Of a DNA stretch of 64,000 nucleotides, positions 1,911 to 29,383 are shown one piece after another; position 1 is the stretch's first letter, and each line of letters opens with the position of its first letter. Location: the NCBI GenBank assembly GCA_001593865.1, contig LUCB01000003.1, forward strand, positions 30,781 to 94,780, read 5' to 3'. The translations under genes and the position numbers were made by a program. This DNA is from Candidatus Bathyarchaeota archaeon B24. Its GTDB lineage: Archaea > Thermoproteota > CALKCG01 > B24. The notes under the pieces are model-generated. The model was not told the origin of the DNA and did no database searches. It saw only the letters and a program-made list of their open reading frames with translations.

Positions 1911-2660
1911 CTAAGTTAACGTCTTTGCGAAACGCTTGTAGGCTATGTAATAAAACGCTATAATAGAGAATATTAATACTGCGAAATCTGTAGCCAGCAT
2001 GGTAAGATTATTTACGCCGACGATCGACTGGTAGATCATATCTACGGAGTAAGTTAGGGGGATCAGGTAGGCTATGAACTTCAGCGAAGGCATGAATGCG
2101 TATATCTCATCTATCGGCATGAACACGCCTGCGAAGAAGATCATGAAGAACCTGACGAAGTTCATCGGCCACATGACATCGGCTATGTCCTCGGCTGAGG
2201 CAGAGAACGCTAAGCCCAGAGCACACGCAGAGAGCACGGATAAGGCTACCGCTACCACGAGGAGGGCTGCGTTGAGATTCCAGAAGCCGGCGAACGGAAG
2301 TATTATCGAGAGAACTATAAGGGTTATCGGAAAGCTGAACGTGAATCCTGCAAGACTTTTACCGAGTAGAATTGTCTTCAGCGAGACAGGTGCAAGTAGA
2401 AGCCTATCTATAGTCCCGGTTCTTCTCTCGAGCGGAAGTATAACAGCCTCGACGGTTGTCCCTCCGAAGAACGTCGATAAGGCCGTGACCCCCACGACCC
2501 TATAGTCCTCTGTGACGCATGGCCTCCCTGCAAGAAACGCCCCAAACATAGCGAAGGGCAGAACTACACCGTAAAACAGCGTAGCCGGCTTACTATAGTA
2601 AGTCTTGACATCTTTCTTAGCTATTACAAGTGCCTTTTTCAGGGTTAAAACTATGCTCAT
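1911..2660 (-). CDS. ABC-2 type transporter permease (6 TM)
   Basis: The ORF-track entry 1911..2789 is trimmed to the internal ATG at 2660 (MSIVLTLKKALVIAKKDVKTYYSKPATLFYGVVLPF...). That ATG forms an ATGA overlap with the stop of the upstream ATPase gene. The remainder is hydrophobic and multi-pass, with ABC-2 family character. Confidence 0.75.
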   Translation of the reverse strand: MSIVLTLKKALVIAKKDVKTYYSKPATLFYGVVLPFAMFGAFLAGRPCVTEDYRVVGVTALSTFFGGTTVEAVILPLERRTGTIDRLLLAPVSLKTILLGKSLAGFTFSFPITLIVLSIILPFAGFWNLNAALLVVAVALSVLSACALGLAFSASAEDIADVMWPMNFVRFFMIFFAGVFMPIDEIYAFMPSLKFIAYLIPLTYSVDMIYQSIVGVNNLTMLATDFAVLIFSIIAFYYIAYKRFAKTLT

Positions 2661-3670
2661 CTTCTTCTCCTCCTCCCAGAGGGTCTCACAAGCTCCAGCC
2701 TCTCGACATCGACGGCTGTCAGCCCCGTAAGCTTCACAAATACGTCTTCTAGGCTCGGTGTCAGGGTTCTTACCGAAATAATCTTCCAACCCTTTAAGTC
2801 GGCTAGGCCCGTAAGCTTGGATAATGTCGCGGAGGGATCTCTGGTGTATATTCTAAACTTATCCCCGGACCTCACCACGTCGCCTCCGACGACCTTCAGA
2901 TCCTCAAGACTAGGTATGGGTGAGATGGAGACCTCTATGCTTAACTCACCTCCGATGGTCTGCTTAAGCCTCTCAGGCTTATCAAGGGCTACTAGATGCC
3001 CTCGATTAATTATTCCCACCCTCCCGCAGAGATTATCAGCCTCGTCTATGAAGTGGGTTGTCATAAAGATTGTAACACCCTCCTTATTCAACTTCCTCAG
3101 GACGTTCCTGATGATCCTTGTACTCTGAACGTCTAACCCACTCGTAGGCTCGTCGAGAAAGATTATTTCGGGGTTATGGATTAAAGCGGCCGCTATAGCA
3201 AGCCTCCTTCGCATACCCTTAGAAAAGGTCGCAGCCTTATCGTGTCTCCTCTCGTACAGCCCAAAGACTTCTAAGAGCTCTTTAGCCCTCTCGACGGCCG
3301 CATCCCTTGGAACGTCGTAGAGTTCGGCTATGAACAGGAGGTTCTCCCAAGCCGTCATCTCGACATATATGTTAGACACCTCGGGAACGACCCCCATGAG
3401 CCTCTTAACGTCTAAGGGCCTCTCCATTATATTAACCCCCATTATGAGCGCCTCACCCTCAGTAGGTGTAAGGAGCCCAGTAAGCATCCTGACGGTGGTG
3501 GTCTTCCCGGCTCCATTGGGTCCAAGCAAACCGAAGAACTCGCCTTTAAACACTTTCAAGTTCAACCCGTTAACGGCCGTGAATTTACCATACCGCTTAG
3601 TGAGATTCCGCGCCTCGATAGCCACGTTAACGTCAGAGCGCAAATCTCCGTAAGAAGACAGTTCCTGCAT
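2657..3670 (-). CDS. ABC transporter ATP-binding protein, DrrA/CcmA (ABC-2 partner) type with C-terminal accessory domain
   Basis: Walker A is GLLGPNGAGKTT, the signature is FSKGMRRRLAIAAAL, Walker B is IIFLDEPTSGLD and the H-loop is TTHFIDEA. It is translationally coupled to the ABC-2 permease. Confidence 0.9.
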   Translation of the reverse strand: MQELSSYGDLRSDVNVAIEARNLTKRYGKFTAVNGLNLKVFKGEFFGLLGPNGAGKTTTVRMLTGLLTPTEGEALIMGVNIMERPLDVKRLMGVVPEVSNIYVEMTAWENLLFIAELYDVPRDAAVERAKELLEVFGLYERRHDKAATFSKGMRRRLAIAAALIHNPEIIFLDEPTSGLDVQSTRIIRNVLRKLNKEGVTIFMTTHFIDEADNLCGRVGIINRGHLVALDKPERLKQTIGGELSIEVSISPIPSLEDLKVVGGDVVRSGDKFRIYTRDPSATLSKLTGLADLKGWKIISVRTLTPSLEDVFVKLTGLTAVDVERLELVRPSGRRRRR

Positions 3671-5430: not shown

Positions 5431-8400
5431 GTGAGACCGGTTAAGCTTTCAAGTCATCGGACTCATCCGGCCGTGTCTAAGGCCTTCCTAGTAACTCTTA
5501 TCGCCATGCTACCGCTGGCGTTAGTAGGTTCAATCCTTGTGTCACCAGCATATTCGCAGCTTCAACCTCAAAACCAAGAAGAACTAATGGCCATGTTCAA
5601 GGAAGTCCTAGATAACATTGACCAAAAAGAAATTATGGAGCATGTAGCCTTCTTTTCAAGCTGCGGGTCTAGGGTTACAGGGTATCCCGGCTTCTTCAAG
5701 GCCATGGATTATGTCGTCTCTAAATTTGAAGAATATGGTATTCAGCCCTACGGTGAGGACGGCTACTTCGAATACTTCTACATAACGATTCCCGTCGACT
5801 ATGGAGCTAACATATTGCTTGAGGATGGTGAGGTTCTCCACGGCTATAATCTTTGGCCTAATCTAGTTAACCCGTCGCCTTATAGGAGTCCGCCTGAAGG
5901 CGATTTATTGGTTTATGTCGGTGGAGGAACGTTCGACGACCTTTCTAAGGTAAACGTCACAGACCGATGGGTGTTGATGGATTTCGACAGCAGGTGGTTC
6001 TTCCGTCTGGCTGCGATGTTCGGCGCCAAAGGTGTAATATACATAGGTACTGGGAAAGAATCTAGGATGGAGGCGTTCCAAAAGCTATACAACGTACCGA
6101 TGGCGTTTCCGAAGATCTACCTAAACCCGGAGGACGGTCTTCGTCTGAAGGAGCTATGCGAGAAGCAGGGTGAGGTCAAGATCTGGATAAACTCGTTGAT
6201 GAGGTGGGAGCGCATACGGGTCGCCAACATAGTAGGCTTCATACCAGGCACCGCTAACGCCTCGGAGATAGGGGTCATAACAGCCTATTTAGATTCCTGG
6301 TCTATAGTCCCTGCCCTATCCCCTGGGGCGACCGATGCCCTAGGTATCTCCGCGCTCTTGAACTTCGCGAAGTTTTTGGCTAAGAACCCGCCTAGGCGTT
6401 CGGTCATGCTTGTCGTCCTAGCCGGGCACTGGCAGAGCTTATGGGGTGCTAGGGAATGGGTCGACAGGCACTTCGACATACTTGGGACTTCTGTGAAGTT
6501 CTTCGTAAGCCTAGACCTATCGGCTGGTAGCCAGCAATTAGCCGTATACAACCGTGGCAACGTATACTCATACACCAACCTGCAGACCCTAAACAGCCGA
6601 TACACATCGCTGATAAACCTCCTGTTCAGGACATACTTGCCTGTGCTGAGGGATGACTCTCTCCTCGGAGAACGCTTCGGCGCCTACTTCATAGACGAGA
6701 TACTGCTGACCTATCCTCCTTGGATAAGCGCATGCCCGCCTACGGAGTTCCTAGGGGCAACCTACTTCGACTCTGAGCCTTACGTAGCCGCATGCTACGG
6801 TGGAGGCTTCGCTTTCCATACGACGAACGATGCAAGAATCTATATGAAGGGCCCTGGCGACACTTATGACCGAATCCAGTGGGACAACTACTGGCCTCAA
6901 GTGCAGTTTATATGTACGTCGCTGTACGGTTTATTGAACGAGCCTGTGATAGACCTACCTCAGTCACCTTCGAGGCTGGAGGCTACAGGTGAGTGGGGCT
7001 ACTGCAGCTTGACGATCAAAGTCGTTAGCTACAATATGACGACGGCTTACTGGGACCCCTTCGACGCTGAGAGGCATCCAGAGGCGATAAACGACACGAT
7101 AGTTCATTACCAATCTACCGCGGCACCGGCTATGCAGGCTGTACCTTCATACGCGGCGTTCGGTGCGGCGTTCATCATGGGTGTACTAGATGTCATAGCT
7201 AAGCCTGATGAAAACGGCGTCGTGGTGATTAAGGGTATAAAGCCTTACACGAGCGGGATGGTAGATGCGTTTGTGATAAATAGCACTAACGGTGAGATAG
7301 AGTGGGCCACCGACATAGGCGTGTATTCGCCTTATCAGTCTAAGATCGCCTCTGTGACGACGGTAAATGCATCGTACTTATGTTCAATATTCAGGTGCGC
7401 AAGCATAGTTCTGTTTGCGTTATTCAATCCGTCCGACCTAAGCTCGATGCCGAACGTGGTGCTATACAACAGGCTGGCTCATGGACCATTGATTCAGCAG
7501 AGCTTCTTAGTTTCGATGTACGGTGACGTGATGGCGTTTATCCAACCGGATATACCGGTTGAGATCCTCATCACACGAGGCCGAGCATTCGGCATGGCGG
7601 CGACAGTGGCAACCTCCGGCGCTGCATTAGGCTCGGTAGGTTTCATCGGAGCCTTCCTCGGAGGAGGTGGTGGAGGTAGGTTCCCGATGGGTATTCTAGT
7701 GAACAGCACCGCTGATTTTCCAGAGGGATATGGATATAAAGTAAGCGCAGGAAAAACATTGAGAATACCGTTCACACCCATGCTCTACGCAAGGGACATC
7801 TTCTTGTTAAACGACGGTAGGGTGAAGCTGGCTGCGAAGTACTTTACATTTAACCCAGTCACCATAATGTTCCATGGATTAGCTGAAAAGTATCTAAAAC
7901 TGGCTTTAGAGGCATACAGGCAGAGAGACTATGGGCTGAGCTATGCATCGGCCTACGCAGCTTGGGCTTATGAGCAGGTAGCATACTACTCTATGATGGA
8001 TCTAATATGGCAAGTGATATACACCATAGTGGTGATATCCATCGCTATAATACCGTTCGCATATGCGATGAGCAGGCTCGTCGGGTTCGAAGGTCGTAGG
8101 CTAATAGCTGGTGTGATCATGCTCTTTGGAATCATGCTGATCGTGCTCGACATATTCCATCCAGGTTTCCACTTGGCTAGCAACGCCGGTATGGCGATCT
8201 TGGCATTCGGTACCGCCATAATAATACTGCCGCTACTGGGCTTCGTGATACGTGAAGCCATGATGAGCGCCAAGACTCTGAAGGAAAGAATGATCGGTAT
8301 GCACACCGCCGAGATAAGCCGCTCCGCCATAGCGTTTCAGGCCTTCTCGCTATCGATTCAGAACATGCGTAGACGACGTTTCATGACGGTGCTGACCCTA

Positions 8401-10125
8401 GTCTCCATAGTGATACTGGTCTTCTCGATGGTCACGTTCACCTCGCTTATGGCTGCACCTAGGCCTGTAGAGGACGTACGAACCATATCGGAGGGGGAGA
8501 CACCGCCGCTGTATCAGGGTATACTGATACGTAGGCCTGTGTGGTCGCCTATACCGGAGGAGATGTACTATCAGGTCATCCACCAGTTTAAGGGTACAGG
8601 CATATATTCGGCTAGGGGTTGGCTGTTCCCACCGCCTCCGCAGAGAGGTTTAGGGTTCTTCGCGTTCTCAGATAAGCTGATAACAAAGGTAGGTGCCGTC
8701 TTATTCCTGAGCCCTGAGGAAAAGGAGCTCTCCCACATAGACGAGATACTGCTACCCGGTAGCGACTGGTTTGGACCTGACGACGTTTACACATGTATCA
8801 TAAGTAAAACCATGGCTGATAACCTGACTAAAGAGTTGGGTAGGCCGATAACGATAGGCTCGGTTATACCGTTTCTAGGTATGAATCTTAGGGTTATAGG
8901 GATGTTCGACGGTGACCTTCTATGGTCTGGAAGCGAGGGTTTCGTAGATTTAGATGGTGAACCCATAACGCCGCTTATGCCGTTGATAACGACGGGTGCT
9001 GGTAGGGCTGTGCCGTTCCACTTCACCGGAGACTTGATAATGCTTATGCCTCTTAAGGCCTGCCTTCTACTTAGGGAGCGTGCCTACATAGTGAGCATAG
9101 CGTACAAGCCATATAACACGACTGCTATACGCGAGATCGCCCGTAACTTAGCCCTGAGGATCGCGACTGATGTGTATTACAGCGACGCGCCGGATAGAAT
9201 CGGGATCGTGAGATACCGGCAGTGGTTCACGGTCACAGGGTTTGAGACGTTCATAGCCCCGACGATAATCTGTAGCTTCACGATCTTGAACATGATGCTC
9301 GCTAACGTCCACTACAGAACCAGGGAGATCTCTATCTACATGGCTGTAGGCCTGTCGCCACTCCACGTTTCGATATTGTTCCTCGCAGAATCGCTAGTGT
9401 ACGCCCTGTTAGGGACGGTTCTAGGGTACGTGTACGGCGTGATCGGGTGCTGGATCTTCAACATATTCGGCCTATATCCGCCAGGATTCTACCCCAACTT
9501 CTCGTCGTTCTACGTGTTCATCGTGCTAGGGTCAGCCTCACTAGTAACCATACTCTCGACGGTTTATCCATCGATAAAGGCGTCGAGGCTTGTGACACCT
9601 TCCCTCGAGCGTAAATGGAGGGTTCCTCCGCCTCGTGGAGACGAGTGGGAGATACGGATGCCCTTCGTGTTCTCGGGTAGAGAGATCTACGGGTTCCTAG
9701 CGTTCGTGAACGAGTATTTAGACGCGCATAGGACCGAGGGAGTGGGTGCCTTCGCCACCTTCGGAGATATCGAATGGAAATCTGAGAGGGATCCGCTAGA
9801 GGAGAGGGATACTAAGACGTTGATAGCTAACGTACGTCTTGCGCCGTTCGACGTAGGCATCACCCAGAAGGTGATGGTTATAGCCGAATCGCAGAGGAAA
9901 CGACCGTATTCGCTTACCCTATACCTCCAGAGGACGACTGGGTTGTTAAGCGACTGGGTGAACTCCAACAGACCGTTCATAGACAACATGAGGAAGCAGC
10001 TGTTGATATGGAGAACGTTGAAGCAGACGGATAAGGAGAAGTACATCGACCTAGGGTTAACGTTATTTAGGAAGAAGCTCGGTATTGGTGACGAAGAATT
10101 TAAGAAGTATCTGGATCTAGAATAG
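5431..10125 (+). CDS. Giant (1564 aa) membrane fusion protein. Domain order: anchor, PA/M28-peptidase-like ectodomain with degenerate catalytic motifs, helical stalk, 3-4 TM helices, MacB/FtsX-type permease, ~170-aa cytoplasmic C-terminal domain
   Basis: ITAYLDSW, PGATDALGISALL and LAGHWQSLWGAREW align with M28 motifs AHxDSW, GAxD(D/N)xSG and EExGLxGS, but the metal and catalytic residues are replaced. LSIQNMRRRRFMTVLTLVSIVILVFSM matches MacB TM1. NMMLANVHYRTREISIYMAVGLSPLHVSILFLAESLVYALLGTVLGYVYG is an FtsX domain. The GTG start is uncertain; an alternative GTG lies at 5473. Confidence 0.8.
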   Translation: MRPVKLSSHRTHPAVSKAFLVTLIAMLPLALVGSILVSPAYSQLQPQNQEELMAMFKEVLDNIDQKEIMEHVAFFSSCGSRVTGYPGFFKAMDYVVSKFEEYGIQPYGEDGYFEYFYITIPVDYGANILLEDGEVLHGYNLWPNLVNPSPYRSPPEGDLLVYVGGGTFDDLSKVNVTDRWVLMDFDSRWFFRLAAMFGAKGVIYIGTGKESRMEAFQKLYNVPMAFPKIYLNPEDGLRLKELCEKQGEVKIWINSLMRWERIRVANIVGFIPGTANASEIGVITAYLDSWSIVPALSPGATDALGISALLNFAKFLAKNPPRRSVMLVVLAGHWQSLWGAREWVDRHFDILGTSVKFFVSLDLSAGSQQLAVYNRGNVYSYTNLQTLNSRYTSLINLLFRTYLPVLRDDSLLGERFGAYFIDEILLTYPPWISACPPTEFLGATYFDSEPYVAACYGGGFAFHTTNDARIYMKGPGDTYDRIQWDNYWPQVQFICTSLYGLLNEPVIDLPQSPSRLEATGEWGYCSLTIKVVSYNMTTAYWDPFDAERHPEAINDTIVHYQSTAAPAMQAVPSYAAFGAAFIMGVLDVIAKPDENGVVVIKGIKPYTSGMVDAFVINSTNGEIEWATDIGVYSPYQSKIASVTTVNASYLCSIFRCASIVLFALFNPSDLSSMPNVVLYNRLAHGPLIQQSFLVSMYGDVMAFIQPDIPVEILITRGRAFGMAATVATSGAALGSVGFIGAFLGGGGGGRFPMGILVNSTADFPEGYGYKVSAGKTLRIPFTPMLYARDIFLLNDGRVKLAAKYFTFNPVTIMFHGLAEKYLKLALEAYRQRDYGLSYASAYAAWAYEQVAYYSMMDLIWQVIYTIVVISIAIIPFAYAMSRLVGFEGRRLIAGVIMLFGIMLIVLDIFHPGFHLASNAGMAILAFGTAIIILPLLGFVIREAMMSAKTLKERMIGMHTAEISRSAIAFQAFSLSIQNMRRRRFMTVLTLVSIVILVFSMVTFTSLMAAPRPVEDVRTISEGETPPLYQGILIRRPVWSPIPEEMYYQVIHQFKGTGIYSARGWLFPPPPQRGLGFFAFSDKLITKVGAVLFLSPEEKELSHIDEILLPGSDWFGPDDVYTCIISKTMADNLTKELGRPITIGSVIPFLGMNLRVIGMFDGDLLWSGSEGFVDLDGEPITPLMPLITTGAGRAVPFHFTGDLIMLMPLKACLLLRERAYIVSIAYKPYNTTAIREIARNLALRIATDVYYSDAPDRIGIVRYRQWFTVTGFETFIAPTIICSFTILNMMLANVHYRTREISIYMAVGLSPLHVSILFLAESLVYALLGTVLGYVYGVIGCWIFNIFGLYPPGFYPNFSSFYVFIVLGSASLVTILSTVYPSIKASRLVTPSLERKWRVPPPRGDEWEIRMPFVFSGREIYGFLAFVNEYLDAHRTEGVGAFATFGDIEWKSERDPLEERDTKTLIANVRLAPFDVGITQKVMVIAESQRKRPYSLTLYLQRTTGLLSDWVNSNRPFIDNMRKQLLIWRTLKQTDKEKYIDLGLTLFRKKLGIGDEEFKKYLDLE

Positions 10126-20651: not shown

Positions 20652-21428
20652 TTGGGGTTGTTTTTGAGGCTGAAGACTATAAGCCTTATATCGTTTATCA
20701 CCGTGTTGTTTCTAGTTCATGCTCCTGATTTCTCCTCTGGCTTCTCTCAGCCTGGATGGGTTAAGCCAGGTGCCTATGTCGAGTATGGCTGTAACGTGAC
20801 CGTTTATAAGGGGGCTCCATATGCCCCTAGCTCTGGAACTTTTAGATGGACTGTAGTGAACGTTACCGGCGGTAAGATTTATGTGCTTTATGAGATGAGA
20901 ATCGAAGATCTCTCGCTTGAGAAAACGCTCGTGGTCGATGCAGAGACCAATAGAATACTCTCGATAGACGGGGAGTCTGTGGGAAACATCACAAATTATC
21001 TCTGGCTCAGTTATATTCCGAGGATTGGAGGTTTCATTCAGCTTGAGGATCTAATGGCCGAGGTCGTGGACCTGAGGAAGTTTTCTTCTAGGCTGTTCAC
21101 TAACAGGACGTGTTGGGTTACTAACGCGACCTTCAGCATAGCCAATGTAAACGCGGGAGATTTGAAAAACGCTACTATGGAAGGTTTCATAGAGAGGATG
21201 TACGACTCTGAGACCGGCATACTTGTGTATTCACGCTTCTTAATAGAGTTTAAAGGGTCTGACGGTAAGGTCACTCAGAGCTACTTCTCTAGAATAGTGA
21301 TCTCCTCGACGAACATAGAGGAGCTTAGTGGCCGACGACCAGCTGTCATACCCATGACCGTCGCAGCGGTGTTTATAGTCGCGGTTCTTCTACTGGCTAG
21401 AAGAATCCTCCATATAGGATTAGTTTGA
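20652..21428 (+). CDS. Secreted, C-terminally anchored glycoprotein-like protein (hypothetical)
   Basis: TTG start with uncertain position. Signal-like N-terminus ISLISFITVLFLVHA. Many sequons (NVT x2, NIT, NRT, NAT x2). C-terminal TM is AVIPMTVAAVFIVAVLLLA-RR. Confidence 0.55.
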   Translation: MGLFLRLKTISLISFITVLFLVHAPDFSSGFSQPGWVKPGAYVEYGCNVTVYKGAPYAPSSGTFRWTVVNVTGGKIYVLYEMRIEDLSLEKTLVVDAETNRILSIDGESVGNITNYLWLSYIPRIGGFIQLEDLMAEVVDLRKFSSRLFTNRTCWVTNATFSIANVNAGDLKNATMEGFIERMYDSETGILVYSRFLIEFKGSDGKVTQSYFSRIVISSTNIEELSGRRPAVIPMTVAAVFIVAVLLLARRILHIGLV

Positions 21429-22287
21429 TAATTACGTCCACTAAGACCGGTGTTAAACCCGCTATTAGAGCCTTCTTCTTCGGCATTCGGCAGAGTATGT
21501 GAAGCGCTACGGAGCATATCAGGTAGCTCCAGACCGAGAACGAGTACCCGATGTTGAAGAGAACTTGCGGTATCGTAAGTGTCTCCCACTCAGTTTTGTA
21601 GGTGTTTGTCATCGTGTCTGCTATTTCGATGTTTTTCAGGTTCATCCGTACAAGGGTTATAGAGGATGAGAGCATGACGACAGCTGTATCGACGGCTACG
21701 ACGACCGTTAACGGAGGGACTACGAAGAGTATCATGGCTGCTTCGATAACCTTGCCTATTATGTAAACGCTTATCGAGTATGTAGTCGCCATGAGGATGG
21801 TTGTGAAGCTTCTCTCCGCTCTGAGTAGCCACGTCATTAAATAGTATATCGCTGTGGTTCTGAGGATGAAATAGCCGTTATTTATAAGGGACATGACCGC
21901 CAAACGTATGGCTGTCGCGTAATCCATCAGCGATGGGTTTAGGGGTTCTAAGAGGTCGGGTCTTTTAAGGATGTAGAGGTTTGTCTTGAAGAGCATGAAA
22001 AGTTGTTTGTTGATTATGTCCATCGCTATCAGTATCGCAAGTATCGCTATAGGACCTCCTATATCTGGGTTCTCCGCTATCTCCTTGAACGCTTTGAACG
22101 GGTTGGCTATGACAAGCCCTGTTCTTCTGGAGAACTCTCTAAGCCATAAGGCTACATGTTTGAGGGTTGATTTTAGACCACCTAGGATTATCGTCGCTGC
22201 GGTTTGTAGTGTTTGAATTTTTCCACGTCGTTTCCTCCGTCTTCTGGGTTTTCTTCTCCGCCTTGTTTTAGGCTTGGTCTCTCCCAA
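21397..22287 (-). CDS. Yip1-domain-like multi-pass membrane protein with a polybasic N-terminus
   Basis: The N-terminus is KTRRRRKPRRRRKRRGK. Then NPFKAFKEIAENPDIGGPIAILAILIAMDIINKQLF plus 5 TM resembles the Yip1/DUF1282 organisation. Its 3' end overlaps convergent 20652..21428 by 32 nt. Confidence 0.6.
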   Translation of the reverse strand: MGETKPKTRRRRKPRRRRKRRGKIQTLQTAATIILGGLKSTLKHVALWLREFSRRTGLVIANPFKAFKEIAENPDIGGPIAILAILIAMDIINKQLFMLFKTNLYILKRPDLLEPLNPSLMDYATAIRLAVMSLINNGYFILRTTAIYYLMTWLLRAERSFTTILMATTYSISVYIIGKVIEAAMILFVVPPLTVVVAVDTAVVMLSSSITLVRMNLKNIEIADTMTNTYKTEWETLTIPQVLFNIGYSFSVWSYLICSVALHILCRMPKKKALIAGLTPVLVDVIIKLILYGGFF

Positions 22288-22582
22288 TTTTTCTACATCT
22301 CCGGTTTCGTTCGCTAAGACTTCTAGAAGCTTTTAGAAGCGACATCTAATATATCTTTCCCACACCTCTGCCGAACTCCACTTGAGCGAGGTCGGTGCGG
22401 GGGTTTAACCGTGGAATGGGGAGCGGCTGGGATATTTATTGCCAGTTTATTTTTTAGCGGAGGTTCTTGGTTTTCTTTTTTAGAGCGCTTTAAGAGGAGG
22501 TATGTGAAGTCTTCTGTGTGGGTTTTTAGAAAACTTAAAAAGTAGTTATGTGTTGGTTAGTAGTTAGGGGCTCTGGGGAGGG

Positions 22583-25500
22583 TTGGAGTTGAGGACTGGT
22601 TCTTTTAAAATCTTTTTGGCTGTTTTAGCGGTTATGTTGTTGTTTCCTGTTTCTACTTCGACGGTTGCTCAAGAAGCCTCTAAGGATGTAAAATGTACGT
22701 TAGTTATGTATATTATGAATTTTATGACGAGTTCCCCGGAGCCTAGAATTAATGTGTCGGCTATTTTAACCAACGTAACTTTAAGTGGTGTTACGGATGA
22801 ATTTGGATGTGTGAAATCTTCTTTCAACGCTTCAAAGGATCTCGTTAATAATCTTATGTTGAATGAATTATCGTTGTATGGGAATTTTACTGTGATAAGG
22901 ATTCAGGATTATTTGATGGAAGACTTGCAATATGATTCGTTTTATTCTGAATCTACTGTGACTTACACGGGTTTGGCTATAAGACCAAGGGTTGTGGAAA
23001 GTAGGAGGGAGACTCTTCTGTATTATTATGTGTACGTGTTAAAGAGTAGAGTGGTGAACGTGAGTGACTTGGATGTCTCGACCATGCAGATACTTCCTAG
23101 CGGCGATTTACGTATTAGATGGCGGAGAAAGCTTATCTTGGATGCCAGACCTGCTGTTCCTATAGATAGGGGGGCTAGTCGTTATGAGAGTCTTTATCTG
23201 TTCCCGTTAAACTATACGGTTAATGTAAAAGTAATGGTTTATCGCTATGGTTTCTTAGTTGATGAGTATTCTGTTAAAACGCTTGTAAGTGGTAACAGAA
23301 CCTACGTAAATATTATGGGGCCGATTCTAGATATTAAGATTAACGAAACGTTAAAGCCTTTTGAGGAGGAGATAGCTACGCTTAAGTTCTTGGGTTTATC
23401 TATGATCGATGAGGAGAGGCTTCTCATAAGGATTAATAATCAGAAAGACAGTATTCTGAGGTTGATCGAAAATAGGAGTTATGATCCTGCTTTCGCTCAA
23501 TTAAGGTTCTTAGCTAAGAAGGTTGCTGAGTTAGGAAGTAGGCTATCTAACTTAGGTGCCTCTTTAACATGGTCTTCTATACTGGTTATGGCGTTTATCT
23601 ACGCGTTTTCATCGCTTTTACCTACTCTGATGACTGACGATGCTAAAAGAAAGCTTATCATGAAATTTGCGATATATTTCTCTTTGTTGTTGATTTTCCT
23701 ATATAGCCATAACGAGTTTAAGATCGCAGTATCTATGATATCTTCTAACATCCTTCTAACCGATATTAAATACCTTGATGACTTCACAGTACTGCTTATG
23801 GGTGTGGGCGTGGGGAGTCTAGGGGTTCTTATACCCACTTTGATATCGCTTTATTCTCCCCCGGTGGTGAGCTTAAGCCTAGACTTGAGTATAAGAGATC
23901 TTAAACGACATCTATCAAGATCTCTTCTAACGATTTTCGCGTTCTCCCTCATAATAGCGTCGACGCTGGCTGTTTTTAAGATATCATATAGCCACATGCT
24001 CTCCGAGACGGAGACGATTGCTCGATTCAAGCGCGACATAATATGTCTGCAATCCACGACCAACAATATAATCGTTAAAGACAATTTAATATTCTTGAAG
24101 TCTATGCCTTGGATTAACTCATCCTATTTGTTTAAATCACTGTATGGTGATATTTCATTGGATAGTCTCTCAGGTTTTGCCGCTATCAGGTTGATTTCGC
24201 GAGATTATGGTATGCTTGAGCAGCGGTTCGACATTTTAGGAGTCGACCCGGAGTTTCTAGATGAGTACTTCAACTTCTCTACGACGATTACTAAAGGCGG
24301 GTACCTCTCTGGAAGTGAGAGAGCTATCCTTGTTCCAGCCTCGTTGGAGTATTACTTGAGGCCGTTAGATAGGGTTAGGATGCGCTTTGTGATCGTGAGT
24401 TCTGTAGGTCAGCAGTTAACGGATGTGGCTGAATACGACTTTGGAGAGTTTATTGTTAAAGGGTTCTTCGACCCAGACTCTGTCGATAGGATTACACTTC
24501 CTGATGGGTCGCCGTTGATAGATGTATCGTATAAGACGGTAATAGTACCCGGAGACCTCCTGCCAGATTCGATAGATGCGCGTCATCTGACTATAACAAT
24601 TCCTAGGCTTAGAAACATCGTATCCTTCTCGGGACCAACGTACATAGACATACTTAAAGTCCAATATGCGTTCTTATTGCCAGACCCCAGTAGCGGAGTC
24701 GACGTTTATGAGAAGGCTAGGGAGCTTATGGATCTGACGGGCTTCCGGACGTTTGGTTTCTCAAACGGAGTCTGTAAAACATATGAGGAATTGTATGTTC
24801 TGAACGTCGTGGGCTTCTCATCGATCGTGCCTCCCCTCGTGATAGTTACGCTTATAATCGTGTTGGTCATGAACTCCGTCATCTATGAGCGGCGTAGGGA
24901 GATATGGACCCTAGCTGTATTAGGCGGTAACCCACGTAACATAACAAACATGTTTCTTACAGAGGCGTTGATCACAGGAATCCTGTCGACAACCATAGGC
25001 TATCTATGCTATACCACCGTCTACTTGTTGTCCGGGGTGCTGATACCCATCATACAGAGCTTGAACCCTGAGCTTGTTAAGCTCTTCGTGGAGATGAAGT
25101 CCGCATCAGGCTTCGACCTTTCCTCCATCCTTGTAGTGTTGTTCATAGGTTTGGCAGTCCCCGTGATCGGCAGCTACATACCCTGTATAAAGGCTCACGG
25201 CCTAACCCTCCTCGGTAGACCTCCTAAGAGGAACATAAGTGAAGATGTACGGACGAGAGGGGAGTTAGCTGAATATTCTCTCCCGATCAGAGCTACACCT
25301 TTCGACGGGGAGATGCTTTATAACTATCTGAAAGACAATTTCCTCACGAAGACCTTCCAGGTTAAGAAGCTCTCTGGGAACGCTTATCAAGACGGGACCT
25401 TCGACTTTAAGTTTACGCTACAGTTCAGGAACGTGCTCACCGAGTGTAACTTAAAGGGTATTAGACGGGGAGATACGATATATCCTGTTCTAACATTCCC

Positions 25501-26191
25501 CGCTAAGTTCATCGACGCTATGGACCTACACAAATTCATATACGACCTCGAGAAGATTTCGCTCGGATATCCCTCGTGGAGGGAGAAGAATATACGGCTT
25601 GAGATAACTAGGGTTAAACCTGTTACCCGAGTTAGGACTGTGGACGATGTTCTACGGGATGTCAGAGTAGTTCGTGAACAGCTCCGTGTCGTCGATAGTA
25701 AGCTTAAGACGCTTGAAAAACTTAAAGCTACGACTCCGTCGGAGCTGCTGACTGAGTATGAGAAGAAATACCTAGCCCAAGCGGAGAGGCTTAACCGTAT
25801 CATACGACGTCTTGGTCTGGAACTCGAACCATTCTACGAAGAGCTTAACAAGGAGGCTCAGAAGCTGAACACCGAGATAGAGCGGTTGAACATCGCTTAT
25901 AAGCTTGGAGAGATACCTGAGGAGGAATATAGGTCTTCTGTGGAGCCTCTGAAGAATAGGCTTAGCGAGGTTCAGAAGAAGCTTAGCGATATAAAGTTTG
26001 TGATGACCCAGCTTAAGATGCCGAGAGCGAGGCTTACGAGGATAAGCTTGCCGGCGCGGAGGCTTACGCGGCGGAGGAGGGTCGAGGAAACTCCAGGTCT
26101 CATGTACTGTCCATACTGTGGAAGCACGAACCTGATAAAGACCCCAAGCGGCTCGATAATATGCGGAAGATGTCGTAGAAGACTACGTTAA
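22583..26191 (+). CDS. Giant (1202 aa) membrane fusion protein. Domain order: signal peptide, glycosylated ectodomain, helical stalk, 4 TM helices, MacB/FtsX-type permease, cytoplasmic domain, long coiled coil, C-terminal zinc ribbon
   Basis: Signal peptide is FKIFLAVLAVMLLFPVSTSTVAQE. MacB TM1 is IRDLKRHLSRSLLTIFAFSLIIASTLAVF. The FtsX domain is VLVMNSVIYERRREIWTLAVLGGNPRNITNMFLTEALITGILSTTIGYLCY. Heptad-rich residues ~1010-1150 form the coiled coil. The terminal sequence is YCPYCGSTNLIKTPSGSIICGRCRRRL (CxxC...CxxC). TTG start with uncertain position. Confidence 0.8.
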   Translation: MELRTGSFKIFLAVLAVMLLFPVSTSTVAQEASKDVKCTLVMYIMNFMTSSPEPRINVSAILTNVTLSGVTDEFGCVKSSFNASKDLVNNLMLNELSLYGNFTVIRIQDYLMEDLQYDSFYSESTVTYTGLAIRPRVVESRRETLLYYYVYVLKSRVVNVSDLDVSTMQILPSGDLRIRWRRKLILDARPAVPIDRGASRYESLYLFPLNYTVNVKVMVYRYGFLVDEYSVKTLVSGNRTYVNIMGPILDIKINETLKPFEEEIATLKFLGLSMIDEERLLIRINNQKDSILRLIENRSYDPAFAQLRFLAKKVAELGSRLSNLGASLTWSSILVMAFIYAFSSLLPTLMTDDAKRKLIMKFAIYFSLLLIFLYSHNEFKIAVSMISSNILLTDIKYLDDFTVLLMGVGVGSLGVLIPTLISLYSPPVVSLSLDLSIRDLKRHLSRSLLTIFAFSLIIASTLAVFKISYSHMLSETETIARFKRDIICLQSTTNNIIVKDNLIFLKSMPWINSSYLFKSLYGDISLDSLSGFAAIRLISRDYGMLEQRFDILGVDPEFLDEYFNFSTTITKGGYLSGSERAILVPASLEYYLRPLDRVRMRFVIVSSVGQQLTDVAEYDFGEFIVKGFFDPDSVDRITLPDGSPLIDVSYKTVIVPGDLLPDSIDARHLTITIPRLRNIVSFSGPTYIDILKVQYAFLLPDPSSGVDVYEKARELMDLTGFRTFGFSNGVCKTYEELYVLNVVGFSSIVPPLVIVTLIIVLVMNSVIYERRREIWTLAVLGGNPRNITNMFLTEALITGILSTTIGYLCYTTVYLLSGVLIPIIQSLNPELVKLFVEMKSASGFDLSSILVVLFIGLAVPVIGSYIPCIKAHGLTLLGRPPKRNISEDVRTRGELAEYSLPIRATPFDGEMLYNYLKDNFLTKTFQVKKLSGNAYQDGTFDFKFTLQFRNVLTECNLKGIRRGDTIYPVLTFPAKFIDAMDLHKFIYDLEKISLGYPSWREKNIRLEITRVKPVTRVRTVDDVLRDVRVVREQLRVVDSKLKTLEKLKATTPSELLTEYEKKYLAQAERLNRIIRRLGLELEPFYEELNKEAQKLNTEIERLNIAYKLGEIPEEEYRSSVEPLKNRLSEVQKKLSDIKFVMTQLKMPRARLTRISLPARRLTRRRRVEETPGLMYCPYCGSTNLIKTPSGSIICGRCRRRLR

Positions 26192-26206
26192 AAAGGGAGA
26201 GTGATT

Positions 26207-29200
26207 TCAACTTCTAGGCCCGGTCGTACTGCTCATTAGGGAACGCTTATATCTCTCCCAGTCTTTAAGCGCATCCCTTACTACGCTTACCGTCAGCTCT
26301 ATCGCCCGTTCAGGCATACCTTTGACCTCAGGCTTCGACAAGAGAGTTATGTAGAACCTGTCCGAATCACGTGGTCTCATAGCTCTAAGCTCGTTTATGG
26401 TAGCATACTCCTTATACCTATGTGTAAAGCGTACTCTGACGACCTCAGTACCGTCTACTAGAATCTCTTCTTCGAGCTTGAGGTTTTCGATGCGTTCGAA
26501 AAGACCTGAGACCTCTTTCAACCTATCGGTTATGAACGCCGTGAAGAACGGCTTCTCGCGTCTATGAACCCTGACGGGCATAGATATACTTCTTTCATGG
26601 TAGACCTTGAAGATCTTTTCCTCTCTCTTAACCTTCTCAGCCTCAGGGATCTTGATTTTTCTTATGAGCGATGGTGTAGCCATGACCGCTGCTCTGACCG
26701 CAGGTACAACCGCGGATAATATCGAAACGGATATCGAAACCAGCAGTCCTATAACACCCCAGTACCATTCAAGCTTCTCCCTGACACCTATCTGCCCCGC
26801 AGGTCCCAGCAGGCTCATAAGCCTGTAGGCGCCTAAACCAGCGTAGTAGCCTATACCGCCCCCTATCAGACCCATGACCATCGACTCAGCCAGGAAGACG
26901 CTGGCTATGTGCGCCGGGTTAAGCCCTAACGCCGCTAAGAGAAACATCTCGTTTCTACGCTCGTAGACTAGGTTAATCATCACCATGAACACGTTCAGGA
27001 ATACTAGCGTAGCAGGTACCAGAAGCTCCTTGAACCCCTTAATCTCCCATTTTTCACCCGTGTAGACTTTCGTGACCTCACCGTTGAAGAAGACCCAAGC
27101 GTAGTATTCTCTCAGAGCCATCTTGTTGGCGAAGTTCTTCAACGTATTTTCATCGCTCATAGGAATGAAGACCGCGGATATACCTACCTTTTCCGAGAGC
27201 CCGGTTGTCCCTCCCTCTGAGGATGGGAGCGCTATTATGGTCCAAGCGTTGAAAACTGCGAACTCCGTAGCGTTGACGGGCTGAAGCTTTCCTTCGCTGG
27301 TGAGCTTATAGGGTGCTATGGGCTTACCGTTAAAATCGTTAACTCCTAGGATCGCTGGGTTTACGTAGCCTACTAACGTAAAGTTCCATGTCTGCGTTTC
27401 CACGCCTCCCATTAACCTAGACACTTGAATCTTATCTCCGGGTTTTACCCCGAGTCTCCTAGCTAAGCTTTCGGTTATCGCGATACTCATATTTTCCTCA
27501 AAGAGCTCCTTCGGCAGGTAGTTGGCTATTCCTAAGACCTCGGCTCCCTCAGCGGTCAAGCCGACTACGCCTAAGAGGTCTACGTTACGCCCGCTTAAAG
27601 CTCTTAAACGTACCACGGAGGAGTTTGAGGGAACGTTCTCCACCCTGATCATAAATTTTTCGGCTCCATAGGCCTTTAATGCCTCCAGCTCCCCTGATGC
27701 AAAAAACTGCTGTACGCTTGAGACCTTCGTCGCGTTTAGAGGAGCTTTCTCTAGAAGACACCCGTTCACGTCGATGTTTGTGGACGACGGTCCTTCGACC
27801 ACTATACCCTGAACCCTAGAGAACGATGTAAACGCCGTCAGCACCATTACAAGCATCGCTAGGGATAGGATGCAGAAGCTAGACCTGAGCTTTCTACGTT
27901 TAACGTTACGCTTGCCTATGGAGAATATGACGGTGATTATGCTCTTAAGCGACGCCCTCCCCTCTATCTCCGGTGGCCTATAGATCCGCGGGAAGACGAA
28001 ATATAGCGCAACAGTTAAGGCTATGGACGCTATGATCACGGCGATAAAGAACAGGTTCCCTCGAACGGTTACAGTCTTAAAGCCGAATACCTTTCCGAAG
28101 CCGAATAGGTCGAACACTATCTTACACTGGGGATTCATGATTATCCTAAAGCCTGGGTAGATGTAGTACAATGAAACTATGATCAGCGGGTACACCACCA
28201 ACGTTGTGATCAGCTTCTTCTTAGTGTCCTCGAATAGGAAGCTACCTATAGCTATCGAGAAGACGGCGAAGAACGGTGGATAGAACGTCGCATGAGACTG
28301 GGCTAGAGCCCTCATAATGCCTAGACGGTTTTCAAGAAGCCTCAGGCTATAGTATGCCTCTTCGAGATACTGAAACCTAACCGCTTCGAGCTCGCGCTCG
28401 CTCGGGCTTGGGTTCAACGGCGGTAGTAGGTTTTTAGCCGTCTCGACGTTTTGCACAACTCCACGCTGAAGATCCTCTCTCTCAGCTCCGACGTAGAACC
28501 CCTCCTGCTCGGCCAGAGCTAGCTTCTCCTCGAGGTCTCTGGTTAAAGTCTCGAGTGTGTCGGCGCTCACCTTATACATCTCGCTTCGAATGTCTACGAG
28601 TATCCTCTCCCCCTTACGTAGCTTTATCGGTTTACCTTGGAAGCCTATAAGCATGGAAAGGATGTCTTTTCTCTTAGTACGTTCGTTAAGAAACTGCATC
28701 TTCGCTACTAGATAGATAGATGTATCGGCTGGTACTATGACCACGTTTTTCACGAATAAATCTCTCGAAGATAGATACTGGATATCCGCCCCCACTATCC
28801 CTAGCCTCTTTTTAACGCTGTGGACCGGAGGCTCACCGTATATTACGACGGTCCCGTTAGGGAGTGTAGGGGTTTTAAAGGTCGAGGAGTCCACAGGAGT
28901 GATTATGTACCATGAGGGAGCGGATTTGCTTAGTATATACCACATCTCGGCTTTTCTCTTCGGATAGATCTCTATCACAGCCCCTGGTACAAGGTTGAAG
29001 CTCAGTTCCATCGAGCTTTTAATCCCACCTTTTGAAACGTCTTCAGGATACAACGCCGGTACATAGTCGATCAACCCCGTGGACGAATTCGTATGGAGCA
29101 CATAGATCAGATACTCGCATCTCAGGCCATACAAGTCATACATCGGTAAGGCGATTTCATAAAAGCCCTCGCTATCGGTGTATGTGATAAAGTACCTCTG

Positions 29201-29383
29201 CTCAAAGCTTCCACGCCAGGGTATCGCTATTATCGTGGCGTTGAAGATAGGCTCAGACGTATAGTAGTCGACGACCTTACCATAGATCCTCAAGCTCTCC
29301 TCGTATGACTGAGCCATAGCGCTAAAAGCTATTAAGGACAGCATCGCTAGAGCGATGGGAAGCAGGATCCGCCGTCTCCGCAT
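26207..29383 (-). CDS. Giant (1058 aa) membrane fusion protein. Domain order: signal peptide, carboxypeptidase-regulatory-like beta-sandwich and ectodomain, helical stalk, 3 TM helices, MacB/FtsX-type permease, ~160-aa cytoplasmic C-terminal domain
   Basis: Signal peptide is RRRRILLPIALAMLSLIAFSAMAQS. LRIYGKVVDYYTSEPIFNATIIAI...TDSEGFYEIALP has the CarboxypepD_reg pattern. MacB TM1 is KRNVKRRKLRSSFCILSLAMLVMVLTAFTSF. A MacB periplasmic-domain-like stretch reads ITESLARRLGVKPGDKIQV...FTLVGYV. The FtsX domain is NVFMVMINLVYERRNEMFLLAALGLNPAHIASVFLAESMVMGLIGGGIGYYAG. Confidence 0.8.
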   Translation of the reverse strand: MRRRRILLPIALAMLSLIAFSAMAQSYEESLRIYGKVVDYYTSEPIFNATIIAIPWRGSFEQRYFITYTDSEGFYEIALPMYDLYGLRCEYLIYVLHTNSSTGLIDYVPALYPEDVSKGGIKSSMELSFNLVPGAVIEIYPKRKAEMWYILSKSAPSWYIITPVDSSTFKTPTLPNGTVVIYGEPPVHSVKKRLGIVGADIQYLSSRDLFVKNVVIVPADTSIYLVAKMQFLNERTKRKDILSMLIGFQGKPIKLRKGERILVDIRSEMYKVSADTLETLTRDLEEKLALAEQEGFYVGAEREDLQRGVVQNVETAKNLLPPLNPSPSERELEAVRFQYLEEAYYSLRLLENRLGIMRALAQSHATFYPPFFAVFSIAIGSFLFEDTKKKLITTLVVYPLIIVSLYYIYPGFRIIMNPQCKIVFDLFGFGKVFGFKTVTVRGNLFFIAVIIASIALTVALYFVFPRIYRPPEIEGRASLKSIITVIFSIGKRNVKRRKLRSSFCILSLAMLVMVLTAFTSFSRVQGIVVEGPSSTNIDVNGCLLEKAPLNATKVSSVQQFFASGELEALKAYGAEKFMIRVENVPSNSSVVRLRALSGRNVDLLGVVGLTAEGAEVLGIANYLPKELFEENMSIAITESLARRLGVKPGDKIQVSRLMGGVETQTWNFTLVGYVNPAILGVNDFNGKPIAPYKLTSEGKLQPVNATEFAVFNAWTIIALPSSEGGTTGLSEKVGISAVFIPMSDENTLKNFANKMALREYYAWVFFNGEVTKVYTGEKWEIKGFKELLVPATLVFLNVFMVMINLVYERRNEMFLLAALGLNPAHIASVFLAESMVMGLIGGGIGYYAGLGAYRLMSLLGPAGQIGVREKLEWYWGVIGLLVSISVSILSAVVPAVRAAVMATPSLIRKIKIPEAEKVKREEKIFKVYHERSISMPVRVHRREKPFFTAFITDRLKEVSGLFERIENLKLEEEILVDGTEVVRVRFTHRYKEYATINELRAMRPRDSDRFYITLLSKPEVKGMPERAIELTVSVVRDALKDWERYKRSLMSSTTGPRS

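Follow-up and report, generated by a model that had tools for sequence, protein, structure and literature searches.

A CdvA-type three-helix domain in the C-terminal tail of a giant FtsX-type membrane protein of Candidatus Bathyarchaeota archaeon B24

CdvA is the sole component of the archaeal ESCRT-type division machinery that is not known to have a eukaryotic counterpart. FtsX/MacB modules are understood as mechanotransmitters that are driven by an ATPase. In CdvA filaments, head-to-tail hydrophobic contacts between the coiled-coil domains build the protofilament (PMC12818579; bioRxiv 10.1101/2025.09.15.676241), and the PRC domain of one subunit touches the coiled-coil domains of others (PMC12818579). 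These filaments bind no membrane in vitro, and the authors of that study postulated an as yet unidentified tether (PMC12818579). Here we analyzed a stretch of 64,000 nucleotides from Candidatus Bathyarchaeota archaeon B24 (contig LUCB01000003.1, positions 30,781 to 94,780; hereafter the window), focusing on the intact open reading frame (ORF) at 22583-26191 (+ strand; TTG start, TAA stop), which encodes one of three giant FtsX-type membrane proteins in the window (1202 amino acids; P0001; hereafter the giant), with a tail domain homologous to the coiled-coil domain of CdvA.

CdvA-like domains are also known outside CdvA itself. In its passages on such proteins, the survey of Makarova et al. 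lists extra CdvA-like proteins in Bathyarchaea, a combination of FHA and CdvA-like domains in haloarchaea, and a combination of zinc ribbon, coiled coil and CdvA-like domain in Thermoproteales, designated arCOG03733 (PMC11188069). The corresponding passage of Kaur et al. describes a CdvA-like domain joined to a Cren7-type ribbon as a predicted DNA anchor (PMC5906684). For shorter bihelical modules of the SHOCT-like type, a role in building complexes beneath the membrane has been proposed (PMC11237479).

The helical tail domain and its relation to CdvA

The initial annotation described the tail of the giant as a single long cytoplasmic coiled coil of about 140 heptad-rich residues that continues beyond the tail conserved in the two related giants of the window. 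The continuation was readily seen: 331 residues follow the FtsX domain in the giant, compared with about 178 and about 159 in the other two (5431-10125 and 26207-29383), and about 190 residues extend beyond the shared tail domain. From the known topology of the FtsX family, the last 331 residues are most probably cytoplasmic, in agreement with the earlier proposal. The architecture of the helical part was different from that described. Two AF2 models (pLDDT 80.8 and 82.8) concurred on three helices at residues 1020-1047, 1053-1107 and 1113-1145 (28, 55 and 33 residues; 25640-26017, +), with pLDDT values of 84-97 in the helices of the coiled-coil model, followed by a basic linker of low confidence and a small ribbon of high confidence. 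The 3.5-residue periodicity was significant in each helix (the observed power was reached by at most 0.2% of 2000 shuffles), and 75-100% of the a/d positions per helix were hydrophobic, whereas a continuous heptad register over the whole 126 residues was unsupported (p = 0.17). Because the register breaks across these 126 residues, the region is a compact bundle of three helices rather than one coil of about 140 residues; the heptads themselves were confirmed helix by helix.

To place this bundle, we compared it with known families by profile and by predicted fold. The Pfam family of the CdvA coiled-coil domain (PF18822) scored 24.7-28.9 bits on the tail of the giant, below its cut-off of 30, and six orthologous tails exceeded that cut-off with 30.9-33.4 bits; PF18822 was also the most frequent Pfam match over the tail family (14 of 33 members). 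Among 14 control genomes, Sulfolobus alone matched PF18822 at E <= 0.001. In hhalign, a profile of 30 tails aligned with 20 genuine CdvAs at a probability of 97.8% (E 9.5e-13) over 123 nearly gapless columns in which both conserved turns coincided, and the score of 95 compared with 22-39 for reversed and 7-column block-shuffled controls. The conserved motifs of the tail are LELEP, inside the long second helix, and LGEIPEEEY, at the turn between helices 2 and 3. When the tail profile was searched against 177,635 PDB sequences, the top match was the CdvA of S. islandicus (9s9g). Fold searches gave the same answer when the coiled-coil part was modeled alone, but not with the whole 331-residue tail: CdvA chains made up nine of the ten best Foldseek matches, and an exhaustive VIA-align search ranked 9s9g_A first of 48,161 chains (Z 13.2 over 128 residues, model 8-135 to CdvA 68-197), ahead of a single 69-residue hairpin (Z 10.1). 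These results establish the homology of the tail domain to the coiled-coil domain of CdvA.

Below the CdvA chains, the second hairpin of the domain matched the cytoplasmic domain of archaeal OST1/ribophorin I (8whn), the "steadiness box" hairpins of the ESCRT-I core (2p22, 2caz, 2f66, 6vme) and ESCRT-III hairpins. The ESCRT matches echo the published similarity between CdvA and ESCRT-I, yet helical hairpins are generic.

We then examined the distribution of the family. Full-length orthologues with all four cysteines of the ribbon occurred in six related genomes (67-91% identity). Two further families, one of them in the same order, have relatives that retain the globular and CdvA-like domains but stop short of the ribbon. 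An exhaustive search with the 331-residue tail over 1.84 billion representatives returned 30 clusters, about 24 of which represent FtsX giants that contain both the globular and the CdvA-like part; the family was not found in many CdvA-bearing lineages. The records are labeled Ca. Bathyarchaeia, Thermoprotei, Thermoproteales or TACK metagenome-assembled genomes (MAGs), and are named "hypothetical", "FtsX-like permease" or, in one case, automatically, "CdvA-like protein".

The giant is not an orthologue of CdvA, because it has no PRC barrel, no E3B-type C-terminal motif and no cdv neighborhood. No PRC barrel was found in the giant by Pfam, and the region preceding the helices is an alpha/beta globular domain (residues 885-1003; 25235-25591, +), which the AF2 model and alignments show to be common to other FtsX giants; the genuine CdvA of this genome has the PRC barrel. 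The E3B motif (P-h-x-V-x-h-E type), visible in most of the genuine CdvAs aligned, is missing from the tail of the giant and from its small operon partner described below, and the neighborhood of the giant was free of cdv and ESCRT genes at every locus examined. The genuine cdvA lies on contig C36, between two helical ORFs of about 200-280 amino acids that are candidate CdvB/ESCRT-III-like genes, and a genuine cdvA is present in every sampled genome with the fusion. By manual mapping, six positions that make longitudinal contacts in S. islandicus CdvA were hydrophobic at two of six in the window protein and at five of six in the genome's own CdvA. Complex prediction of CdvA (residues 1-212) with the tail coiled coil scored 0.00 in both runs, in which the controls were not folded, and so weighs neither for nor against an association.

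These findings bear on a possible role of the domain in cell division. If it joined the genuine Cdv machinery, it could co-assemble with, cap or nucleate CdvA filaments, and could serve as a membrane anchor for the CdvA ring and/or bring the FtsX ectodomain to the division site, comparable to bacterial FtsEX, which is recruited to the divisome. The homology to the filament-forming domain of CdvA, the genuine cdvA in every sampled fusion genome and the tether postulated for filaments without membrane binding in vitro all favor this, and the contacts of the CdvA PRC domain with the coiled coils of other subunits (PMC12818579) imply that a PRC-less domain could be a docking site. However, the giant has neither the E3B-type motif nor the PRC barrel, no cdv or ESCRT gene adjoins it in the loci examined, and most of the longitudinal-contact positions are not hydrophobic, as mapped above by hand. 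In addition, the operon brings a CdvA-like partner of its own, and the rarity of the family (about 24 clusters among 1.84 billion representatives), together with its not being found in many CdvA lineages, means that the giant cannot be a general CdvA tether. A link to the division ring is thus attractive but weak, and we consider it unlikely.

The three-gene unit and its candidate partners

A compact unit of three genes with overlapping starts and stops ends with the giant in the sister genus, a second family and two distant MAG lineages. The first gene encodes a helical protein of 229-265 amino acids with no Pfam family, and the second a secreted protein of about 890-1160 amino acids with CarboxypepD_reg, Ig-like and macroglobulin-like domains. 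The C-terminal half of the small protein aligned with the tail of the giant (hhalign 93%, E 3e-7) over 121 columns, which is the whole three-helix domain, and more weakly with CdvA (79%, 70 columns). In five of five loci, the surface protein ends in a transmembrane (TM) helix, a basic stop-transfer segment and a hairpin of about 50 residues with a GE(I/V)xxxxY-type turn. Strong matches to the small protein were confined to the three families that have a giant with a CdvA-like tail, where the gaps coincide with incomplete genomes or contig ends.

In the window's genome, both partners sit on contig C16, which indicates that the giant moved away from the operon in this genus. The small protein (255 amino acids) is encoded at L015:1075-1842 (+). 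The surface protein (L070:3044-7620, +) is represented by two overlapping ORFs of 339 and 1220 amino acids and ends in a TM helix and a cytoplasmic hairpin; the split reflects either a frameshift or an assembly error. A 258-amino-acid ORF of the window (20652-21428, +) was considered as the first gene of the operon and rejected, because its product bears no relation to the small helical protein and has a signal peptide as well as a TM segment at the C-terminus; it has no Pfam family and is conserved in the sister species. In the sister genus, two replication genes, for Gins51 and for the small DNA primase subunit, lie downstream of the giant on the opposite strand (L053:7004-8898, -), with no obvious link to it. 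Contig C22 of the window's genome additionally encodes a stand-alone helical hairpin protein of 74 amino acids (L018:3025-3249, +) that resembles the second hairpin of the tail; this paralogue scored 24.2 bits with SHOCT (PF09851; cut-off 27) and has counterparts of 71-87 amino acids in relatives.

The initial annotation had proposed that the membrane module is coupled to a cytoplasmic partner, either protein or nucleic acid. Coupling to a partner fits our results, which supply two candidates bearing CdvA-like or hairpin modules; nucleic-acid binding and the transmission of a signal are hypothetical here. On balance, we lean towards a reading in which the CdvA-like domain is an assembly platform under the membrane that docks two partners through helical modules and so builds an envelope-spanning complex. 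The predicted cytoplasmic end of the giant consists of the globular domain, the CdvA-type domain, a basic flexible linker and the C4 ribbon. The CdvA-type domain would dock the soluble CdvA-like protein of about 255 amino acids, as well as the short cytoplasmic hairpin of the very large single-pass surface protein with its Ig-like and CarboxypepD_reg domains, so that the three proteins would form a single complex across the envelope. A helical scaffold, taking the place of an ABC ATPase, would then hold, and might also cluster, the FtsX module and the surface protein, while the ribbon and the Arg-rich linker would offer a second binding site whose ligand could be protein, acidic lipid or nucleic acid.

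Several points weigh against this platform. Binding among the three proteins is something we only infer, and so is the scaffolding or clustering role. The partners are not adjacent to the giant in the window's genus, and therefore their coupling is not enforced by co-transcription there. The alignment of the small partner comprised three sequences. The hairpin of the surface protein is short, and its apparent similarity to CdvA is below threshold or undetected: two of the five hairpins gave weak matches to PF18822 below the cut-off and three gave none. Moreover, SHOCT-like and GvpG-like hairpins are common and occur on several unrelated proteins of these genomes, so shared hairpin motifs prove no specific interaction.

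The tail could instead be an internal structural element, its three-helix domains packing against each other within an FtsX dimer, which they would stabilize or gate as a clamp that replaces the ATPase dimer, with no external partner. MacB/FtsX permeases act as dimers, the domain of CdvA self-associates intrinsically, no ATPase is fused or adjacent to the giant, and its gene stands apart from the operon partners in the window's genus; each of these would suit such a clamp. On the other hand, the two related giants of the window possess both FtsX module and globular domain and do without the extension, which is therefore not needed for the core fold, and the linkage of the giant's gene in operons to those of two hairpin-bearing proteins, with which it co-occurs strictly by lineage, argues for hetero-assembly. 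We regard a purely internal role as improbable.

It is similarly doubtful, though of interest for its consequences, that the CdvA-like domain polymerizes, either by itself or together with its soluble paralogue or CdvA, into a membrane-anchored filament system acting as a tether or as a driver. As a tether, such a filament would be the missing membrane attachment for Cdv-type division in these archaea. As a driver, it would drive or position an FtsX module without an ATPase, so that cytoskeletal assembly, rather than ATP hydrolysis, would move or cluster the surface machine. The three-gene unit is a small and well-defined envelope system of uncultured Thermoproteota that could be reconstituted from recombinant parts.

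The Arg-rich linker and the zinc ribbon

The helical domain is followed by a basic linker (residues 1146-1172; 26018-26098, +), predicted to be disordered (pLDDT <50), which contains nine K/R and two D/E residues and the RRLTRRRR segment (residues 1159-1166) noted in the initial annotation. The C4 zinc ribbon forms the last 30 residues (1173-1202; 26099-26188, +) and, as had been read from the sequence, has a CxxC-x14-CxxC pattern, with CPYC at residues 1176-1179 and CGRC at 1194-1197 (26108-26173), followed by RRRLR. No orthologue of the window's family lacks any of the four cysteines, and two more distant clusters have them as well. We estimated selection crudely as pN/pS between the window gene and its six orthologues. 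The values were 0.00-0.08 in the ribbon, 0.04-0.13 in the coiled coil, 0.03-0.10 in the globular domain and 0.18-0.24 in the linker, indicating strong purifying selection on the ribbon. Across the whole family, in contrast, the ribbon was present in only three of the approximately 24 giant clusters, namely the window's own and two others, one of them diverged, and was lacking in the rest. Being lineage-specific and absent from most members, the ribbon cannot be the core of the mechanism. It is better viewed as a lineage-specific add-on, which we infer to be a later, putative second binding site.

One role of this site could be the binding of DNA or RNA by the linker and ribbon, which would make the giant an anchor for the nucleoid or a transcript at the membrane, or a membrane-tethered regulator by which the cell registers an extracellular event. 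The charge of the segment (15 K/R and 2 D/E over 57 residues) and the strong purifying selection on the ribbon are compatible with this, although a basic patch beside the membrane could equally bind acidic lipids. The ribbon resembles the N-terminal ribbon of TFIIB, since Pfam gave a score of 18.1-23.9 bits for the TFIIB-type family (PF08271, Zn_Ribbon_TF; cut-off 29) and the predicted ribbon superposed on 1pft with an rmsd of 0.9 over 29 residues. However, TFIIB-type ribbons bind RNA polymerase, a protein, and not DNA. Published precedents favoring nucleic acid are the CdvA-like coiled coils with C-terminal Cren7-type ribbons, predicted to be DNA anchors in the relevant passage of PMC5906684, and the proteins combining a zinc ribbon with a CdvA-like domain in Thermoproteales, as listed in PMC11188069. 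In the giant, no Cren7 family was among the Pfam matches at E <= 1 for residues 1150-1202, a result to which no dedicated Cren7 profile comparison was added. The ribbon comprises only 30 residues with no helix-turn-helix or other DNA-binding domain nearby, and its absence from about 21 of the 24 clusters marks it as accessory. Nucleic-acid binding by the ribbon is therefore possible, by charge and by analogy, but we hold it to be quite unlikely.

Similar ribbons were also observed on other proteins. In the window's genus, an unrelated helical protein of about 300 amino acids terminates in a near copy of the ribbon (about 60% identity). In the window's genome this gene lies on contig C21 and is split by a frameshift into a helical ORF of 245 amino acids (L017:3302-4039, -) and an out-of-frame ribbon ORF of 36 amino acids (L017:3150-3260, -), whereas a close relative carries the pair as a single protein of 302 amino acids (P0030). 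The 36-residue ORF was considered as a free small ribbon protein and rejected, as it is the out-of-frame C-terminus of the protein that is intact in the relative. The gene adjoins an AglB/STT3-like oligosaccharyltransferase, and its ribbon looks like a secondary copy because the sister-genus homologues have none. A word-indexed search for shorter proteins with linker and ribbon found none, and an exhaustive search yielded one, P0030, for which an atlas look-up gave low-score leads only. In a distant family (genome G020), an FtsX protein of 657 amino acids (L065:1807-3780, +) combines the globular domain with one short helix and a terminal C4 ribbon whose cysteines are spaced differently, so that a C-terminal ribbon is a recurrent accessory of this FtsX family. 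Downstream of this gene lies one for a polytopic membrane protein of 833 amino acids, similar in size and position to the OPT-like (DUF6785) genes of the window.

The membrane module and comparison with known systems

The hydropathy scan of the giant predicted an N-terminal signal peptide or membrane anchor (residues 5-30; 22595-22672), a first extracytoplasmic domain with no Pfam family (residues 31-327; 22673-23563), three extra TM segments (residues 328-431; 23564-23875) and an FtsX/MacB-type module (23912-25195), all on the + strand. The module is composed of TM1 (444-469), a second outer domain (470-741) that forms a hydrophilic stretch of 270 residues, and TM2-4 (within 742-871), giving a predicted core of four TM segments. 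The FtsX family (PF02687) matched residues 752-871 with 39.1 bits (cut-off 25.5) and was also recovered by the genome search, and the outer loop (residues 470-740) matched no Pfam family, MacB_PCD included, at E <= 1. On the cytoplasmic side, Foldseek with the model of the 331-residue tail related the globular domain only weakly to helix-grip, BamC-like and KA1-like folds (best E 5.6e-3). The Pfam scan found no ABC_tran domain within the giant, no ABC ATPase adjoins it in the window, where the nearest lies at 2657-3670 on the opposite strand, and no ATPase gene adjoins it in three distant loci.

In the window, the stop codon of the giant is separated by 15 nucleotides (26192-26206) from that of the convergent third giant (26207-29383, -), as reported initially. 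The divergent neighbor on the other side (21397-22287, -) encodes a Yip1-domain membrane protein of the YknW family. YknW of Bacillus is part of the YknWXYZ system, to which an FtsX-type permease also belongs. Synteny with the Yip1/YknW-like gene and with the third giant does not extend beyond the window's genus, and we did not count it as functional evidence. The GC content is 0.405 for the sequence upstream of the giant's gene together with its 5' half (22001-24000), compared with about 0.50 over the window, and the strand skew is strong. The AT-rich 5' half and the operon context lost in this genus may mark a rearrangement.

Compared with the FtsX/MacB/LolCE permeases (type VII ABC systems, PF02687; FtsEX, MacAB-TolC, LolCDE), the giant shares the FtsX domain, the four-TM core, a large extracytoplasmic domain between TM1 and TM2 and the predicted cytoplasmic location of both ends of the core. 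It differs in having no fused or neighboring ABC ATPase, an additional N-terminal ectodomain with three TM segments, an outer domain that Pfam does not recognize as MacB_PCD at E <= 1, and a cytoplasmic tail of 331 residues that resembles no ATPase. A conserved FtsX family with a helical scaffold but no identified cognate ATPase raises the question of what drives or regulates the module.

Compared with CdvA (S. islandicus 9s9g/9s9h/9s9i), the domain of the giant matches over its full length, including both GE(I/L)xxExY-type turns, by profile and by predicted fold. Unlike CdvA, it is appended C-terminally to a polytopic membrane protein of the FtsX type, lies outside the cdv locus, has neither the PRC barrel nor the E3B peptide for CdvB, and mostly does not keep the longitudinal-contact residues of S. 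islandicus. The terminal ribbon shares with TFIIB-type ribbons the four cysteines in two knuckles and the predicted ribbon fold; unlike in TFB, it constitutes the last 30 residues, and no B-reader, B-linker or cyclin folds follow. SHOCT and SHOCT-like modules (PF09851; PMC11237479) are short helix-turn-helix units with a G-E-I-S/T-x-E-E-Y/F-type turn at the ends of membrane-associated proteins, whereas the window protein gives no SHOCT match and contains a full three-helix CdvA-type unit.

The closest parallels are the published CdvA-like fusions, which, in the passages of PMC11188069 and PMC5906684 devoted to them, likewise combine a PRC-less helical domain with other modules, ribbons included, outside the cdv locus. 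No paper describing a fusion of CdvA with FtsX was found in the literature searched. The fusions in those passages join a zinc ribbon, FHA or Cren7, none being described there with a membrane transporter-type module, whereas the domain of the giant is joined to FtsX. With the filament-forming domain of CdvA covalently attached to a polytopic membrane protein, the giant provides a natural construct for testing binding and sub-membrane organization.

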